Below, piece after piece: positions 2,209-58,108 of a DNA stretch of 64,000 nt. Origin of the DNA: an uncultured Candidatus Saccharibacteria bacterium (GTDB taxonomy: Bacteria; Patescibacteriota; Saccharimonadia; Saccharimonadales; Saccharimonadaceae); contig CAZRRY010000001.1 of the NCBI GenBank assembly GCA_964602775.1, positions 75,585 through 139,584 on the forward strand, read 5' to 3'. Numbering within the stretch: the stretch's first letter is position 1; each line of letters starts with the position of its first letter. The position numbers and the translations under genes were made by a program. A model generated the notes under the pieces. The model ran no database searches, had not been told where the DNA came from, and saw only the letters and a list, made by a program, of their open reading frames with translations.

Positions 2209-3441
2209 CTAGTTGATGCCGAGCGTTTTTTTGGCGGCGTCGAGTTGCGGGTCGCGATTTGCATTGCGATCGTCGGATGTCAGGGCAACAGTGGTGTCGG
2301 GGGCGATGCCTTCTTTGGTGATATTGCGCCCACTTGGTGTGTACCAGCGTGCGATTGTGACTTTGAGCTGGCGACCGCCTGGCAGATCAATCAGACGTTG
2401 GACACTGCCCTTTCCAAAGGTTTTTTCACCGACAAGCGTCGCTGCGTGGTGCTCCTGCAGGGCCCCAGCGACGATCTCACTGGCGCTGGCGCTACTGCCA
2501 TTGACAAGGACGACTGTCTTGACGCCACTGAGGACAGCGCTTCCTTTTGTTTTGATCGTGTCGGTGACTTTGTCGTCGGTTTTTTCGGTGACGATCACTT
2601 TGTCGCTTAGCCAAAGACTGGCGACATCTTGCGCGGCATCGAGATAGCCGCCACCATCATCGCGTAAGTCTAAGATAACAGTTGTCACCCCTTGCTTCTT
2701 GAAACCTTGAGCCGCTTCGCGAGCAAGTCGACCGGTGTCGCTGTCAAATCTTGAGATCGTCAGTACACCCAGCGTCCCTTCGACGCGTGAACGTACGCTG
2801 GGGTCGTTGAGCTTGGCGCGTGTGATCGAGTAAGTTTTGGTCTCTTTGGCCCTGAGCACAGCCACTTTGACGGTCGTGCCTTCTTTGCCGCGGATTTTTG
2901 AAGCCACCGTCGAAGAATCAGCGTCCGCAACTTCTTCATCGTTGACTGCCATAAAAATATCGCCAGCCAAAAGTCCGGCCTGTTCGGCTGGTGAATCCTT
3001 GAGGACGCGTAGGATTGTCGGTCGGTCGCCTCGCATACCGAGCTCGCACCCAATACCAGTGACTTCGCCGCTGAGGTCTTTTGCGAAGTTTTCAGCCTCT
3101 TGTTTGTCCATAAATACGGTGTAGCGGTCGCCTGCTGCCTGTACCATACCACGCGCTGCACCATCGGCAAGCGCAGCGCTATCGAGTTTGCCGTCGTAAT
3201 TAGCCTTGAGCTCACGGTAGGTTTTTTGGACGATACTCAGCTCTAGAGACTCGCTCGAGGCTTTGATGCCAAAAAGTGGCGCGACTGCAGCGTACAGCTC
3301 GGCTTGTCGTGTGCCTGCTATAAATGACACCAAGGCGACCAGGGTGAGGCTCACAAAAAAAATGTACTTCGAGACTCCTGTCTGCTGGGCAATCGCCACA
3401 CGACGCCCACTTTCTTGTGGCTCATATTCAGTCACACTCAT
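2209..3441 (-). CDS. S41 family C-terminal processing peptidase (CtpA/Prc-like, PDZ)
   Basis: N-terminal TM, PDZ, DLRDDGGG, SASASE catalytic Ser, TFGKG Lys. Confidence 0.93.
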   Translation of the reverse strand: MSVTEYEPQESGRRVAIAQQTGVSKYIFFVSLTLVALVSFIAGTRQAELYAAVAPLFGIKASSESLELSIVQKTYRELKANYDGKLDSAALADGAARGMVQAAGDRYTVFMDKQEAENFAKDLSGEVTGIGCELGMRGDRPTILRVLKDSPAEQAGLLAGDIFMAVNDEEVADADSSTVASKIRGKEGTTVKVAVLRAKETKTYSITRAKLNDPSVRSRVEGTLGVLTISRFDSDTGRLAREAAQGFKKQGVTTVILDLRDDGGGYLDAAQDVASLWLSDKVIVTEKTDDKVTDTIKTKGSAVLSGVKTVVLVNGSSASASEIVAGALQEHHAATLVGEKTFGKGSVQRLIDLPGGRQLKVTIARWYTPSGRNITKEGIAPDTTVALTSDDRNANRDPQLDAAKKTLGIN

Positions 3442-3520
3442 TCCTCTCTTTATTGCTTATAGTTAAGTATAGCGCACCTGGTGAGTGGCGCGCTATAGTT
3501 TTGGTGTTGCAAAAATTATC

Positions 3521-32233: not shown

Positions 32234-33394
32234 CTAGCGGAACTTCCCGATATCAGCAATCGTAATCAGCACCACAAGACCCATTAGCACCATAAAGCCC
32301 GTGCCATGAATCTTCTCTTCGAGTTCTTTTGTCAGTGGCTTTTTGAGCACACGAAACAGCGCAGTCACAAACCAGCGACCACCATCGAGCGCGGGAATAG
32401 GCAGGATATTCATGACGGCGAGCGTCAGCGAAATGATTGCTGCCAACATCAACACATGGGTCGGCCCCGCTTTTTCGGCTGCAGGGAAAATCACTCCAAA
32501 AATACCGACTGGCCCCGCCACGTTGTCGCCAATCGCAGCCAGTTTTTTGTCAGCCTCAGCACGCTGTGACTGTGAGCCGACGACTTTCGTCACAAGTCCC
32601 GTCACTGTGTCGCCCACCATGCCACCGAGACTCTCGACCGTCACCCACGACAACTGGGCAGTTGTCGCGACACCTACAATCGGTGCCGACCAGGTCGAAC
32701 GCAGCAACTCTTGCTGGGCCGGGCGAGCACCCATATAGCCCTTGTGGTCATCGTTGTTTGCACGCATTGCTACTGTTGCTGTGTGCTCGACGTCTGCTCT
32801 TGAGTAAATGATTTCCACACTCTTGCCTTTGTTATCGGCGGCGATGCGCGAGAGGTCGCTCGGACTGCGCAGGGGCGCACCGTTGACGCGCAGTATTTTG
32901 TCGCCTTGTTGCAAGCCAGCTTTTGCAGCCGGCATATCTGGTGAGACACCGACGAGCTCGACAGGTTGCTGTACCTGTCTGGTATCTCCGGGCATCGTAA
33001 ACTGATCTGGGAGAATCTTTGGCATACCAACTGCCGCCAAGATACTCAGCAGCACTGCTGCAGTGAGCCAGTTCATCGCCACACCCGCTAGCAAGATCTG
33101 CGTCTTCTGCCAAAACGTCACCGCACCGTAGTCGCCTTTTTTGTGGGCAGCATCATTTTCACCCTGCAACTTGACAAAGCCACCGAGTGGTAGCCAGTTG
33201 ATACTAAAGAGGACGTTGTTGCCGAGTATGCTGTGCGCGACTTTTTTACCCCACGCTTTTGGTGGAAACCCTACGCCAAACTCTTCGACCACTACCCCAT
33301 ACCGTTTTGCCACCAGTGCGTGCCCAAGCTCGTGCACTACCACCAAAATCGTCAGCACAATTACCCCTATCACAATCCCCGCGATCAGTTCCAT
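32234..33394 (-). CDS. rseP: RseP-like site-2 protease (M50, PDZ)
   Basis: HELGH, PLGGFV, NILPIPALDGG. Confidence 0.92.
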   Translation of the reverse strand: MELIAGIVIGVIVLTILVVVHELGHALVAKRYGVVVEEFGVGFPPKAWGKKVAHSILGNNVLFSINWLPLGGFVKLQGENDAAHKKGDYGAVTFWQKTQILLAGVAMNWLTAAVLLSILAAVGMPKILPDQFTMPGDTRQVQQPVELVGVSPDMPAAKAGLQQGDKILRVNGAPLRSPSDLSRIAADNKGKSVEIIYSRADVEHTATVAMRANNDDHKGYMGARPAQQELLRSTWSAPIVGVATTAQLSWVTVESLGGMVGDTVTGLVTKVVGSQSQRAEADKKLAAIGDNVAGPVGIFGVIFPAAEKAGPTHVLMLAAIISLTLAVMNILPIPALDGGRWFVTALFRVLKKPLTKELEEKIHGTGFMVLMGLVVLITIADIGKFR

Positions 33395-34081
33395 CTATCC
33401 TCCAAATCGACGCCCACGTCGTTTATATTCATTTAGTATATCTTCTACGTCCTGCTTTGTCATGTCTGGCCAAAATTTGTCGAGAAACAATAGTTCGCTA
33501 TAGGCACTTCGCCACAACATAAAATTACTCAACCTCTGTTCGCCACCAGTGCGGACGATAAGATCACAGGGCGGAAGTGCCTCCTCGTAAAGATTCGACT
33601 GTATCAACTCAGGAGTGACCTCGCTTTCTGAAACGCCACTTTGAACAATTTTTTTGCACGCATCTGCCAGCTCTTGCTGGCCACCATAGTTCAGGCACAG
33701 TGCCAACGTCCCGCCAGTATTACCAGCTGTTTCGGTCGTTGCATGGTCGATCGCTGCCAGTACTTTATCGCTCAGTCGATCGCGATTGCCGAGCACCACG
33801 ATGCGAATATTCTCATCTTGAAATCTCTTTAGTTTGGTTTTCAGTATTCGCACCAGAAGCGTCATGAGCTTTGAGACTTCTTGCTTGCTTCGTTTCCAGT
33901 TCTCGGTGCTAAACACGTAGGCGCTCACATACGGTACACCCGCACTTACCGTCTCGAGCAAGACAGTCTCGAGTGCTTTTTCTCCTGCATAGTGCCCCTC
34001 CCATGGTTTCAGGCCTCGCTGTTCAGCCCAGCGCCGATTACCGTCAACGATGTAGCCGATATGCTGTGGTAGGTCACTCAT
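33395..34081 (-). CDS. uppS: Undecaprenyl diphosphate synthase
   Basis: HIGYIVDGNRRWA, FSTENWKRS, NYGGQ, RTGGEQRLSNF. Confidence 0.96.
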   Translation of the reverse strand: MSDLPQHIGYIVDGNRRWAEQRGLKPWEGHYAGEKALETVLLETVSAGVPYVSAYVFSTENWKRSKQEVSKLMTLLVRILKTKLKRFQDENIRIVVLGNRDRLSDKVLAAIDHATTETAGNTGGTLALCLNYGGQQELADACKKIVQSGVSESEVTPELIQSNLYEEALPPCDLIVRTGGEQRLSNFMLWRSAYSELLFLDKFWPDMTKQDVEDILNEYKRRGRRFGG

Positions 34082-34467
34082 GGGCGCGCTCCGCGCGTAG
34101 AGCTTGGATCTTGGAGCTTAGATCTTAGAGCACGACCAAGGGCTGTCAGCATTCTCGCAACCACCTCAGTATCTTGACGTATATTGCTTGTATTGATTGC
34201 ATAGATTCGTTCAACAAGCTCTAATTGTGTTTCTAGCTCAGCAATCGATCCCTGTGCTATAGAAGTAAAGTGCACTGTCTCCGCGCGGCTAGTCCTCTTT
34301 TGACCTTCGGCGATATTGGATGGCACAGAAACCGCAGCACGTCGTAGCTGGTCAGCCAATCCAAACTGCTCATATTTCGGAAGCTGACTGCAAATGGAAT
34401 ACACGCCGACAGCTACATCCATCGCACGCTGCCAGACTTGTAAATCTTTGTATGAATTCGTTGCCAT
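34078..34467 (-). CDS. Four helix bundle protein (23S rRNA IVS family, Avd-related fold)
   Basis: YKDLQVWQRAM, QLRRAAVSVPSNIAEG, GSIAELETQL. Confidence 0.95.
   Translation of the reverse strand: MATNSYKDLQVWQRAMDVAVGVYSICSQLPKYEQFGLADQLRRAAVSVPSNIAEGQKRTSRAETVHFTSIAQGSIAELETQLELVERIYAINTSNIRQDTEVVARMLTALGRALRSKLQDPSSTRGARP
34105..34129. repeat. Left arm of the heptamer-periodic inverted repeat around the four-helix gene
   Basis: TGGATCTTGGAGCTTAGATCTTAGA; matches the reverse complement of 34478-34502 at 24/25 positions. Confidence 0.9.
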
Positions 34468-34470
34468 AAT

Positions 34471-34502
34471 TCCAAGATCTAAGATCTAAGCTCCAAGATC
34501 TA
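34471..34502. repeat. Right arm of the heptamer-periodic inverted repeat
   Basis: TCCAAGA TCTAAGA TCTAAGC TCCAAGA TCTA. Confidence 0.9.
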
Positions 34503-34511
34503 TTCTGACGC

Positions 34512-35066
34512 TTACAGCGTCAAAATATCCCTCTCCTTACCCTTGAATGCCTCTTCGATCTTGCCCTGGTACTCGCCCATTAGCCGATCAAATTCTTTCT
34601 CTACCATCTTCAGCTCGTCTTCGGATAGCTCTTTGGCTTCTTTCTTGCCCTTGGCGTCCTTGAGTCCATCTTGGCGGATTGTGCGCATCGCAATCCGTGC
34701 TTCTTCGCCCTTATCACTTGCCTGCCTGACGAGTTGTTTGCGCCGCTCCTCTGTGAGTGCGGGGATCGGAATGCGCACCACTCGGCCGTCATCGCTCGGG
34801 TTGAGACCCAAACTCTGGTCGTTGCGAATCGCCGCCGCAATTTTCTGGATATTACTTGGGTCAAATGGCGTGATTTGCAGTAGTTGTGCTTCTGGAGCTG
34901 TAATATTCGCCACTTGGTTGAGCGGCGTCTCTACCCCATAGGCCTCTACTTTAATCCCGTCCAACATACCAGGGTGTGCACGCCCCGTACGGATTTTGCC
35001 CAGCTCGCCCTCAAAGTGCTCGAGCACACCTGACATTCGTAATTCGTAATTATCTGTATCAAACAT
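34512..35066 (-). CDS. frr: Ribosome recycling factor
   Basis: IRTGRAHP, IPALTEERRK, ARIAMRTIR. Confidence 0.97.
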   Translation of the reverse strand: MFDTDNYELRMSGVLEHFEGELGKIRTGRAHPGMLDGIKVEAYGVETPLNQVANITAPEAQLLQITPFDPSNIQKIAAAIRNDQSLGLNPSDDGRVVRIPIPALTEERRKQLVRQASDKGEEARIAMRTIRQDGLKDAKGKKEAKELSEDELKMVEKEFDRLMGEYQGKIEEAFKGKERDILTL

Positions 35067-35186
35067 ATATCACCTCTTTCTTTATGACTTATTATACAGT
35101 TTCTCTCAGGATATAACGATATTGTATTAGTTTTTGCCTGCAAGGGCAGCTGAGAATTTCGTCGTTGTTTCGCGTATACTAATACT

Positions 35187-36263
35187 ATGTCTGTCAAGGA
35201 AATTCGGGTGCACGGGGTGCGCCCGTACGAGTTGTTTCGTGTGGTGCTCGATGAGCATATAACACTTGTATTGGGTCTGAACGGTAGCGGCAAAACCACC
35301 CTGCTTGAAGCGCTCTACTACATGGCGCAGGGCACGAGTTTTCGTGGCCGCGACCGAGATATGATTGCACATACGAGTAGTCGTGCCGATATTCTCCAGA
35401 TCGAAACAAGTGGCGACGAGCGCCGTGCATCGCTTCAGGAACAAGCCGATGACAAAGTAAAAAAATCATTTACCATCGACGGCAAAACCACCCTTCGCAT
35501 GCCGGCAAAGCACCGCCAACCGGTGGTACTGTTTGAGCCGGACGAGCTTCGTCTCATCAGTAGCTCCCCTGAGCGGCGGCGTAAGTTTTTTGATGGAATC
35601 TTGACTCGTCTCTATCCACACTACGCATCGGTACTGTCGCGCTACCAGCGCGTACTGATGCAGCGCAACGAGCTCCTCAAGCAACGAGAATCGATCGACA
35701 CTATGACCTGGGAATCACAACTCTTTGTCTGGGATATCAAGCTGGCCGAGCTTGCCGCGACGATTACAACCATGCGGCGCGAATTTATCGTCACCAGCAA
35801 CACCCACCTGGGCAAACTGTACTCTGGGCTAGCCAGTAGCACCCACCATGTAACCGTCAACTATGTCTCGAGCGTGCCAGCAGACAACTACCGCCAGGCG
35901 CTCATCACTCGCCTCTCAGCCCACCGACTCAGCGACAGCTACAAGGGGTACACCAGCAGCGGTCCTCACCGCGATGATTTTTCCGTGCAACTCGATGGCT
36001 ATCCTGCCAGCGAAACCGCCAGTCGTGGCGAAATGCGCAGCATCATGCTCGCCTATAAATTGCTCGAGATCGAGCTTCAAAAAGAAGTCTACGGTCAGCC
36101 ACCGCTTATCCTCATGGACGATGTCTTTAGCGAGCTCGATGTCACCCGAGAACAGCAACTTATGCAAGCGCTCTCTGAGTACCAGACAGTCATTACTGCT
36201 ACCGATCTGCGCGACGAGCTAACGATCAACGCCCGTGTCATTACGCTCGATAATCGAACTTAG
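35187..36263 (+). CDS. recF: DNA replication and repair protein RecF
   Basis: GLNGSGKTTLLEA, VLFEP, GPHRDD, SRGEMRS, MDDVFSELD. Confidence 0.93.
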   Translation: MSVKEIRVHGVRPYELFRVVLDEHITLVLGLNGSGKTTLLEALYYMAQGTSFRGRDRDMIAHTSSRADILQIETSGDERRASLQEQADDKVKKSFTIDGKTTLRMPAKHRQPVVLFEPDELRLISSSPERRRKFFDGILTRLYPHYASVLSRYQRVLMQRNELLKQRESIDTMTWESQLFVWDIKLAELAATITTMRREFIVTSNTHLGKLYSGLASSTHHVTVNYVSSVPADNYRQALITRLSAHRLSDSYKGYTSSGPHRDDFSVQLDGYPASETASRGEMRSIMLAYKLLEIELQKEVYGQPPLILMDDVFSELDVTREQQLMQALSEYQTVITATDLRDELTINARVITLDNRT

Positions 36264-39559: not shown

Positions 39560-39686
39560 CAGTTTTCAGTTTTCAGTTTTCAATTGTCAGTGAGTTTTCA
39601 AGTAACAGTTTTCAATGAAATCGTGTATGTGATTCGTTTGTAAACTGTAAACTGATCATTCATTGTAACTTGTAAACTGTAAACTG
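39560..39686. repeat. Heptamer-periodic imperfect inverted repeat between rpsB and tsf
   Basis: mRNA strand: (CAGTTTA)n ... (T/CTGAAAA)n; pairs with an A-A mismatch at every 7th position. Confidence 0.85.
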
Positions 39687-57563: not shown

Positions 57564-57593
57564 CTTAGAGCTCAGAACTTAGATCTTAGAACT
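57563..57593. repeat. Solo heptamer array of the same family as the four-helix flanks
   Basis: Minus strand: AGTTCTA AGATCTA AGTTCTG AGCTCTA AGA. Confidence 0.75.
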
Positions 57594-57601
57594 TTCCGGA
57601 A

Positions 57602-58108
57602 CTACCAGATCCAAGGATTTTTCTTGGCGTAGCTATTCTGCATCCACTGGTTGAACAGGCTCCATTTGCGTGGCGCAAACGCAGCTACCCACAAGAGGAC
57701 GCTGTATACCATATGCTCGTCAACGATTGGATTGTTTTTGAGAGGCATTTCTGCAGCCCACATCATCATGAGTAATGCCGTACCAGTCGCCGCTGCGACA
57801 CGTAGACCGATGCCAAACACGAGTGCAAGCCCAATCCCAAGGAGACCAAGCATGAACAGCCAGTCAACCAAGACATTGCCTGCAAGCCCGTGGAAGAAAT
57901 CTGCCATCGGACTCTGTGGATTGACCCCCATTTTGAGGAATCCAGTTGTTGGCGAGACGCCATCAAGCCACGCTTTGCCATGTGGGGTTGCAAACCCTAG
58001 CCCCATTGTTTTGTCGAGGAATGCCCATACGAAGACAAATCCCACCATAATTCGTGCAACCGCGAGTGCGTACCATGCTTTCTCGTAGTTTACTGTTTTT
58101 TTGACCAT
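57602..58108 (-). CDS. DoxX/DoxD family membrane protein
   Basis: ARIMVGFVFVWAFLDK, VDWLF.LG..GIG, NPIVDEH. Confidence 0.85.
   Translation of the reverse strand: MVKKTVNYEKAWYALAVARIMVGFVFVWAFLDKTMGLGFATPHGKAWLDGVSPTTGFLKMGVNPQSPMADFFHGLAGNVLVDWLFMLGLLGIGLALVFGIGLRVAAATGTALLMMMWAAEMPLKNNPIVDEHMVYSVLLWVAAFAPRKWSLFNQWMQNSYAKKNPWIW

Follow-up and report, generated by a model that had tools for sequence, protein, structure and literature searches.

A four-helix-bundle gene packaged between inverted heptamer arrays in the frr-uppS operon of a Saccharibacteria genome, and the same packaging across its protein family

What is a small gene of the 23S rRNA intervening sequence (IVS) type doing between two essential genes of an mRNA operon, enclosed by a pair of complementary repeat arrays? 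The question is posed by a 64,000-nucleotide stretch of DNA, hereafter the window, from an uncultured Candidatus Saccharibacteria bacterium (GenBank assembly GCA_964602775.1, contig CAZRRY010000001.1, positions 75,585 to 139,584). On the minus strand of the window, the upstream host gene frr (ribosome recycling factor; 34512-35066; PF01765, E 1.7e-57) is followed by a gene for a 129-residue four-helix-bundle (4HB) protein (34078-34467) and then by the downstream host gene uppS (undecaprenyl-diphosphate synthase; 33395-34081 in the table of open reading frames (ORFs); PF01255, E 8e-77). The 4HB gene belongs to the PF05635/TIGR02436 family, known as '23S rRNA IVS protein' or S23p, and its TGA stop (34078-34080) overlaps the uppS ATG (34079-34081) in the sequence ATGA. 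A preliminary description of this DNA had placed an IVS-family gene between frr and uppS and had its stop overlapping the uppS start; the matches to PF05635, PF01765 and PF01255 and the ATGA at 34078-34081 agree with it on both counts. The locus is present in activated-sludge and wastewater metagenomes. Members of the family occur in most phyla, yet the family has been left uncharacterised since 1993 and is without known function. As described below, inverted heptamer arrays bracket its genes well beyond this locus, and the family-wide packaging rule is of greater interest than the window element alone.

The identity of the protein follows from profile, fold and motif. In profile hidden Markov model (HMM) searches the 4HB protein scores 117 bits against PF05635 (cutoff 33.8; E 5e-34) and 115.8 bits against TIGR02436 (cutoff 24; E 1e-33), and its sequence matches PDB entry 2GSC (XCC0516) at E 3e-21. 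An AlphaFold2 model (pLDDT 90) comprises four long helices and a low-confidence tail. By template modeling (TM) score it resembles 2GSC (0.77-0.91), 2RLD (BT_0352; 0.70-0.85) and Avd (4DWL; 0.7-0.84), a protein of diversity-generating retroelements (DGRs). Residues R43, S47, N51, E54 and G55 are invariant in the family alignment, where the motif RxxxSxxxNxxE(G) has been described as conserved (PMC3936711). The product of 34078-34467 is therefore a member of the PF05635/TIGR02436 family, and both the family assignment and the four-helix fold given in the preliminary description hold. The family is large, with 7,950 of 8,000 scored candidates being significant matches. PADLOC returned no match for the 4HB gene, and a 4HB search of phage genomes returned none either. 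With Avd the protein shares the four-helix-bundle fold and a distant sequence similarity (NF033474, E 4.6e-7); in contrast to a DGR, the locus has no reverse transcriptase (RT) Pfam match or template/variable repeat pair nearby, and flanking heptamer arrays are no described DGR feature. Identity as a DGR Avd was rejected on a score of 30.1 bits against a cutoff of 80 for NF033474 and on finding no RT among the called genes.

The arms that enclose the gene, both on the minus strand, are built from 7-nt units. On the sense strand the 5' arm precedes the ORF, at 34471-34502 (perfect core 34478-34500), and the 3' arm lies in the last codons of the ORF at 34098-34129 (perfect core 34107-34129). Over 23 nt the two cores are 100% complementary. 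Lengthened to 34105-34129 and 34478-34502, the arms pair at 24 of 25 positions, precisely the 25-bp arms first described, and in a second register 34098-34129 pairs with 34471-34502 over 32 nt at 84% complementarity. The 7-nt structure ascribed to them is recovered by Tandem Repeats Finder (TRF), which assigns a period of 7 to 34098-34131 (4.9 copies) and to 34474-34502 (4.1 copies). On the sense strand the 5' arm reads AGATCTT, GGAGCTT, AGATCTT, AGATCTT and GGA, ends 3 nt before the ATG, and holds two TAG triplets plus GGAG/GGA motifs. The 3' arm has units of the form RGAKCTT on the plus strand and reads TCTAAGATCTAAGCTCCAAGATCCAAGCTCTA on the sense strand, where it codes for LRSKLQDPSS inside the last ~17 codons of the ORF, in agreement with the claim that one arm is translated; residues ~119-129 of the protein are coded by this arm and the spacer behind it. 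Beyond the arm, the ORF crosses a G+C-rich mini-palindrome, CGCGCGGAGCGCGCCC (34082-34097, minus strand), which was read from the sequence, is part of the insert, pairs in the computed fold and supplies a GGAG 7 nt ahead of the uppS ATG.

Chance is ruled out as the origin of these inverted arms. Arrays of four units of the cassette unit type appeared in none of 200 shuffles of the window, and by our own arithmetic ~5e-7 perfect 23-nt inverted pairs within 500 nt are expected per 64 kb. When the sense-strand RNA is folded computationally, the arm stem closes the structure and the ORF lies in the loop (dG -162 kcal/mol, z -4.5), which is the looped-out ORF that the preliminary description had envisaged.

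Whether the unit was inserted into a pre-existing operon can be read from related genomes. A scan of Frr relatives covered ~25 Saccharibacteria contigs with Frr proteins 60-81% identical. In ~20 of these there is no cassette, and the uppS start adjoins the frr stop or overlaps it (TAATG, gaps of 3-36 nt). Because frr abuts uppS in these relatives, the ~430-bp unit in the window, which these empty junctions delimit to 34082-34511 on the minus strand, is an insertion. Two other lineages, L169 and L172, carry a 4HB gene in the same slot, encoding proteins 57% (P0002) and 48% (P0058) identical to that of the window. Their arm units, AGTTCTG upstream and CAGAACT downstream, differ from those of the window cassette. 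Over 33 nt the L169 arms, with this different unit, remain 88% complementary, so the units have changed on the two sides in step. In L169 the first array unit provides the TAG with which frr stops, and the cassette ORF terminates on the old TAATG. On a simple and crude neighbour-joining tree of Frr plus UppS, cassette-bearing lineages are interleaved with empty ones, which implies two gains or more, or else several clean losses. Taken as a whole, the window element is very probably an acquired IVS-type cassette.

The preliminary description had looked to frr-uppS junctions in relatives for filled and empty sites, and among related Saccharibacteria both are found. Its suggestion of mobility fares less evenly: presence among relatives is patchy, but no strain-level empty allele was found in four DNA metagenomes and no mechanism of movement is visible. 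Target-site duplications are not visible at the cassette junctions. As had been stated for transposase and RT, no Pfam match to a transposase, RT or integrase was obtained among the genes called across nearly all of the window (~2 kb uncovered). Separately, four contigs (L095-L097 at 3055-3478 and L114 at 3055-3466) have an unrelated ORF of ~135 amino acids in the frr-uppS slot, which is not a 4HB gene, has no arrays and is joined to its neighbors by overlapping stop and start codons. The frr-uppS junction seems to take guest genes repeatedly.

At the strain level, an identical 4HB protein is encoded on 12 contigs, and gene order is the same in all eight of the eight contigs listed. The variation lies in the 5' arm. 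In two strain variants (L003 and L005) the 5' arm has exactly one AGATCTT unit fewer, three units against four, and in an RNA-library contig across the frr-cassette junction the 5' arm is likewise 7 nt shorter. Since all three differ by exactly one unit, the 5' arm slips by whole units. Near-identical copies of the arms (34471-34503 and 34097-34129) were also seen with unrelated flanks on other contigs in DNA runs X5, X6, X13 and X15, so the arm sequence is multi-copy. One flank beside an arm copy, beginning CTTACTCAACCGCTTACCGG..., was seen in three runs, and in X5 the depth of an arm-copy contig (27.8) is near that of the window contig (30.2). The copies possibly reside in the same genome.

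Is this packaging peculiar to one locus, or does it belong to the family? A set of 80 homologue loci was assembled from across many phyla, among them Planctomycetota, Verrucomicrobiota, Bacteroidota, Clostridia, Acidobacteriota, Gemmatimonadota, Proteobacteria, and several groups of the Candidate Phyla Radiation (CPR); the loci were chosen by similarity to close relatives of the 4HB protein and may stand for a single subfamily. Simple rules served to call ORF starts and control ORFs. Across phyla the arms do not align column by column, and complementarity was scored per locus with an ungapped inverted-repeat score of upstream against downstream flank, with a threshold of at least 12. This threshold was reached by 51 of 75 testable homologue loci but, among 266 neighbouring ORFs, by 11 (Mann-Whitney p=1.5e-27), and five of these 11 control matches are themselves further 4HB paralogues. 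The association of heptamer arrays with the family that the preliminary description had proposed is thereby borne out. TRF finds arrays on both sides of the gene in 52 of the 80 loci. Among the flanking arrays (n=144) the period is 7 in 104, 8 in 19 and 9 in 7, and arrays occur at a density of 3.9/kb beside the 4HB gene versus 0.75/kb elsewhere. In each pair, reverse-complementing the upstream unit gives the downstream one; the units themselves vary between loci and also between two cassettes within one genome.

The two arms are not interchangeable. The upstream arm is G-rich (G>C) in 46 of 50 homologue loci and contains 8 Shine-Dalgarno-like motifs per 100 nt, with 0 in downstream arms; stops close all three frames in 24 of 52 upstream arms and in 9 of 52 downstream arms. 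A stop codon is present in 26 of 46 consensus units and is TAG in 15 of those. The median arm is 32 nt long, the 5' arm ends at a median of 22 nt ahead of the ATG, and the 3' arm begins near the stop codon, often overlapping the end of the ORF. In 51 of 74 loci the genes on both sides run in the same direction as the cassette, with median gaps of 70 and 49 nt. None of the 40 homologue loci checked has an rRNA gene, and an Rfam search of 40 loci gave nothing beyond tRNAs and a riboswitch. Inverted heptamer packaging is thus specific to the 4HB family, polar, and typical of operon interiors.

The closest described counterparts are the IVSs themselves. The 4HB family takes its name from ORFs inside 23S rRNA IVSs, of which the S23p-bearing IVS of Coxiella has been studied; there, terminal inverted repeats make up a 28-bp stem in which RNase III cuts, and three tandem GACAGAT heptamers, variable in number between strains, lie upstream of the S23p ORF (PMC4990558). 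The literature premise of the preliminary description, that S23p ORFs occur in 23S IVSs excised by RNase III, accordingly holds for Coxiella (PMC4990558). The 23S IVSs of Leptospira, Coxiella burnetii, Haemophilus and Brucella share with the window cassette an S23p/PF05635 ORF in the loop of a terminal-repeat stem, and the stem and strain-variable heptamers of Coxiella are paralleled by the 23-bp stem, heptamer arms and one-unit strain polymorphism seen here. The window cassette differs in its host, which is the frr-uppS mRNA operon rather than helix 9, 25 or 45 of 23S rRNA, and in its construction, since its arms consist wholly of heptamers, its 3' arm is translated and its ORF is translationally coupled to the next host gene. 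RNase III processing has been demonstrated for the Coxiella IVS and is a prediction for the window cassette. Family members have further been reported inside cas operons, in CPR rRNA insertions and as relatives of Avd. A search of full-text literature found no paper that ties the family to flanking inverted heptamer arrays other than in the Coxiella IVS; subscription journals lay outside the search, and an earlier description is possible.

How might such a cassette be tolerated within an operon? By analogy with rRNA, the element may be an IVS-type guest in an mRNA operon whose stem is processed as in 23S IVSs, a mechanism towards which we lean, taken whole, a little beyond even chance. The cassette would be promoterless and co-transcribed with frr and uppS, riding on the host transcript. 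Scans for promoters and terminators between frr and uppS found no excess above chance, and an Rfam search of 33000-36000 matched no family. In the RNA the arms would form a duplex of 23 bp or more with the ORF looped out, and the duplex would serve as an RNase III substrate, as in the 23S rRNA IVSs that carry the 4HB family. Cleavage would then cut the guest RNA out of the host transcript or separate the two. Stops in several frames, ending stray translation, and Shine-Dalgarno-like motifs could come from the G-rich upstream arm, and by reading through the 3' arm onto the uppS start the ORF may preserve for uppS the coupling that frr provided before the insertion (TAATG). Tandem units would allow the stem to re-form in other registers after slippage. 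By the same analogy, the stem of the window cassette is probably processed.

Several observations weigh against this mechanism. RNA for the locus consists of a few contigs in two sparse wastewater metatranscriptome sets. Arm mismatches are G:U in 60 cases and A:C in 58, so that sense RNA is not favoured over DNA as the form under selection. About one third of the homologue loci are without clear arms, and those of the L172 cassette pair weakly. A stem alone leaves the constant polarity, with the G-rich arm upstream, unexplained. With a 3' arm that is translated, cleavage of the stem would deprive the ORF of its stop and part it from uppS, and processing and translation would then have to compete. 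In Coxiella, S23p was concluded to be probably not made (PMC4990558), while the protein family here is strongly conserved. The earlier interpretation is partly supported: the family, the stem and the filled and empty junctions stand, and processing, protein binding and a means of movement are proposals. The processed guest cassette and the other explanations considered here are not mutually exclusive.

The explanation that survives best beside it moves the selected structure from RNA to DNA. The arms would be the hairpin or cruciform ends of a mobile element, handled by an enzyme acting in trans or by the 4HB protein itself, with RNA pairing incidental. The equality of G:U and A:C mismatches speaks for such an element, and filled and empty junctions scattered patchily over the host tree are consistent with it, as are proteins 45-50% identical across phyla, which suggest horizontal spread. 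Near-identical arm copies at other loci of the same metagenomes, at similar depth, point the same way, and the common ORF-less heptamer hairpins could be non-autonomous derivatives. Against it, there is no transposase, integrase or RT nearby, no target-site duplication at the junctions and no strain-level empty allele in the four DNA metagenomes. Moreover, as the units differ widely between cassettes, even in one genome, there is no common recognition site and no shared end sequence. To our knowledge, the four-helix-bundle fold of this family has no nuclease or recombinase motif. On balance, a DNA-level element is rather unlikely.

Known classes of small mobile DNA resemble the cassette in part. 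Miniature inverted-repeat transposable elements (MITEs), repetitive extragenic palindromic (REP) elements and integron cassettes are likewise small, have hairpin-forming ends, lie between genes and come in ORF-less versions. Cassettes of the window type differ from them in being without conserved ends, target-site duplications, transposase, REP-associated tyrosine transposase (RAYT) or integrase, and the integron attC is a single 3' site where the heptamer arms are a bracketing pair. A classical transposon or MITE was rejected on the grounds that shared ends, target-site duplications and a nearby transposase are all lacking; a trans-acting enzyme encoded elsewhere is possible.

A further explanation assigns the arrays to the protein. 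They would be multi-site RNA or DNA binding platforms for a pentameric 4HB protein, serving in autoregulation or message protection, and other heptamer arrays in the genome would be targets of the protein too, as the preliminary description had suggested. Gene and arrays co-occur almost universally, and Avd, the nearest characterised relative, belongs to a nucleic-acid-handling complex (4DWL, 8UBE). Elsewhere in the window, at 57564-57594 and 27-56, there are arrays that share the unit family of the cassette arms. Across the homologue loci, protein distance and unit distance are weakly correlated (Mantel r 0.125, p 0.0035), a signal equally expected from co-inheritance. The invariance of R43, S47, N51 and E54 in the face of very diverse units argues against sequence-specific reading, and heptamer arrays and hairpins are also met in loci and contigs that show no 4HB gene. 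As an explanation, binding of this kind is decidedly unlikely. Least of all, that the arrays are slippage-prone junk beside a small gene is very improbable, for although no other short tandem repeat is as common as heptamers, even in control loci without a 4HB gene, and their copy number slips, junk would not account for the inverted complementarity, the constant polarity, the constant position at start and stop, or the specificity relative to 266 neighbouring ORFs.

Heptamer arrays apart from the gene are found both in the window and beyond it. The spacer between rpsB and tsf holds an ORF-less heptamer hairpin (39567-39686) with 56-nt arms that are 71% complementary, an 8-nt loop and a fold z of -3.1; its sense (minus) strand reads CAGTTTA repeats and then TGAAAAC repeats, a unit unrelated to that of the cassette. 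At 57564-57594, just 3' of a minus-strand ORF of 168 amino acids (57602-58108), lies a solo array of AGAGCTC, AGAACTT, AGATCTT and AGAACTT, with no inverted partner within 300 nt. The preliminary description had listed heptamer stems at 39560 and 57563 as candidate binding sites for the protein; the first is indeed a stem, albeit of an unrelated unit, and the second is a single array. Near the start of the window, an array of CTTAGAA, CTCAGAA, CGTAGAA and CTTAAAA (27-56, equal to L177 3574-3603) lies in frame within a methyltransferase-like gene of 434 amino acids. It codes for LLRTQNVELKT, a peptide similar to the C-terminal tails that the arms encode in 4HB homologues such as P0058 (LRTQNSELRT). 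In the homologue set, ORF-less inverted heptamer hairpins (loops of 6-30 nt) are frequent, near 4HB genes as well as in control loci where no 4HB gene is in view; examples are L140 (753-820, 1520-1613 and 2375-2454), L041 (2250-2319 and 5272-5343), L026 (4049-4160) and L010 (3763-3833). Heptamer stems thus exist without the 4HB gene, and action of the protein on the arrays elsewhere is a conjecture.

Heptamer repeats of prokaryotes have a literature of their own. The STRR (short tandemly repeated repetitive) sequences of cyanobacteria are intergenic heptamer tandem repeats. TAACTGA repeats have been described in Beggiatoaceae, cyanobacteria and Bacteroidetes, with one inverted set among 170 in a Beggiatoa-family genome (PMC4679880), and G-rich heptamer repeats in Xanthomonas and Nostoc (PMC4692102). 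Like the cassette arrays, these repeats have 7-nt units and short spacers, often lie upstream of starts, often contain stops and vary in copy number. Unlike them, they are direct repeats and have been tied to no gene family, whereas the cassette arrays are inverted pairs around 4HB genes. A point of contact with the cyanobacterial repeats is that plasmid-borne copies of the 4HB gene bear such arrays. Matches to the family were found in 33 plasmid records, mostly from the cyanobacteria Nostoc and Calothrix. On N. punctiforme pNPUN01 (L180 1402-1951) the gene has inverted GGGTGTG/ACACCCT arms of 36 nt that are 83% complementary, and on pCC7120alpha of Nostoc PCC 7120 (L179 1498-1907), where it lies between transposase genes, there is a 3' array only (TCTGCCC, 4.9 copies).

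What would the packaging mean for the family? Its members are often read as functional partners of the operons that hold them, cas operons among them. If the packaging is general, 4HB genes would instead be self-contained guests, equipped with an RNA stem, stops and ribosome-binding motifs, in essential operons and in rRNA. Their annotation would change, a link to the unexplained heptamer repeats of bacteria would be gained, and the family would have a simple testable system. A broader proposal, to which we give a low probability, is that 4HB genes and inverted heptamer arrays together form a widespread and unrecognised class of operon-dwelling guest elements, with ORF-less hairpins and solo arrays as non-autonomous or decayed derivatives and with the protein making, maintaining or moving the stems. 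Under this proposal the rpsB-tsf hairpin (39567-39686), the cyanobacterial STRR arrays and heptamer stems in structural RNAs may be such derivatives. If true, it would explain why heptamers are in excess in prokaryotes, as has long been noted, and would assign a function to a family of many thousand members.

Finally, a small hairpin spans the frr stop codon directly 5' of the window cassette. It is an inverted repeat at 34501-34527 on the minus strand, with 12-nt arms and a 3-nt loop around the core GACGCTGTAAGCGTC; it is present in the minimum free energy fold and may be a transcript-end or ribosome-pausing structure.

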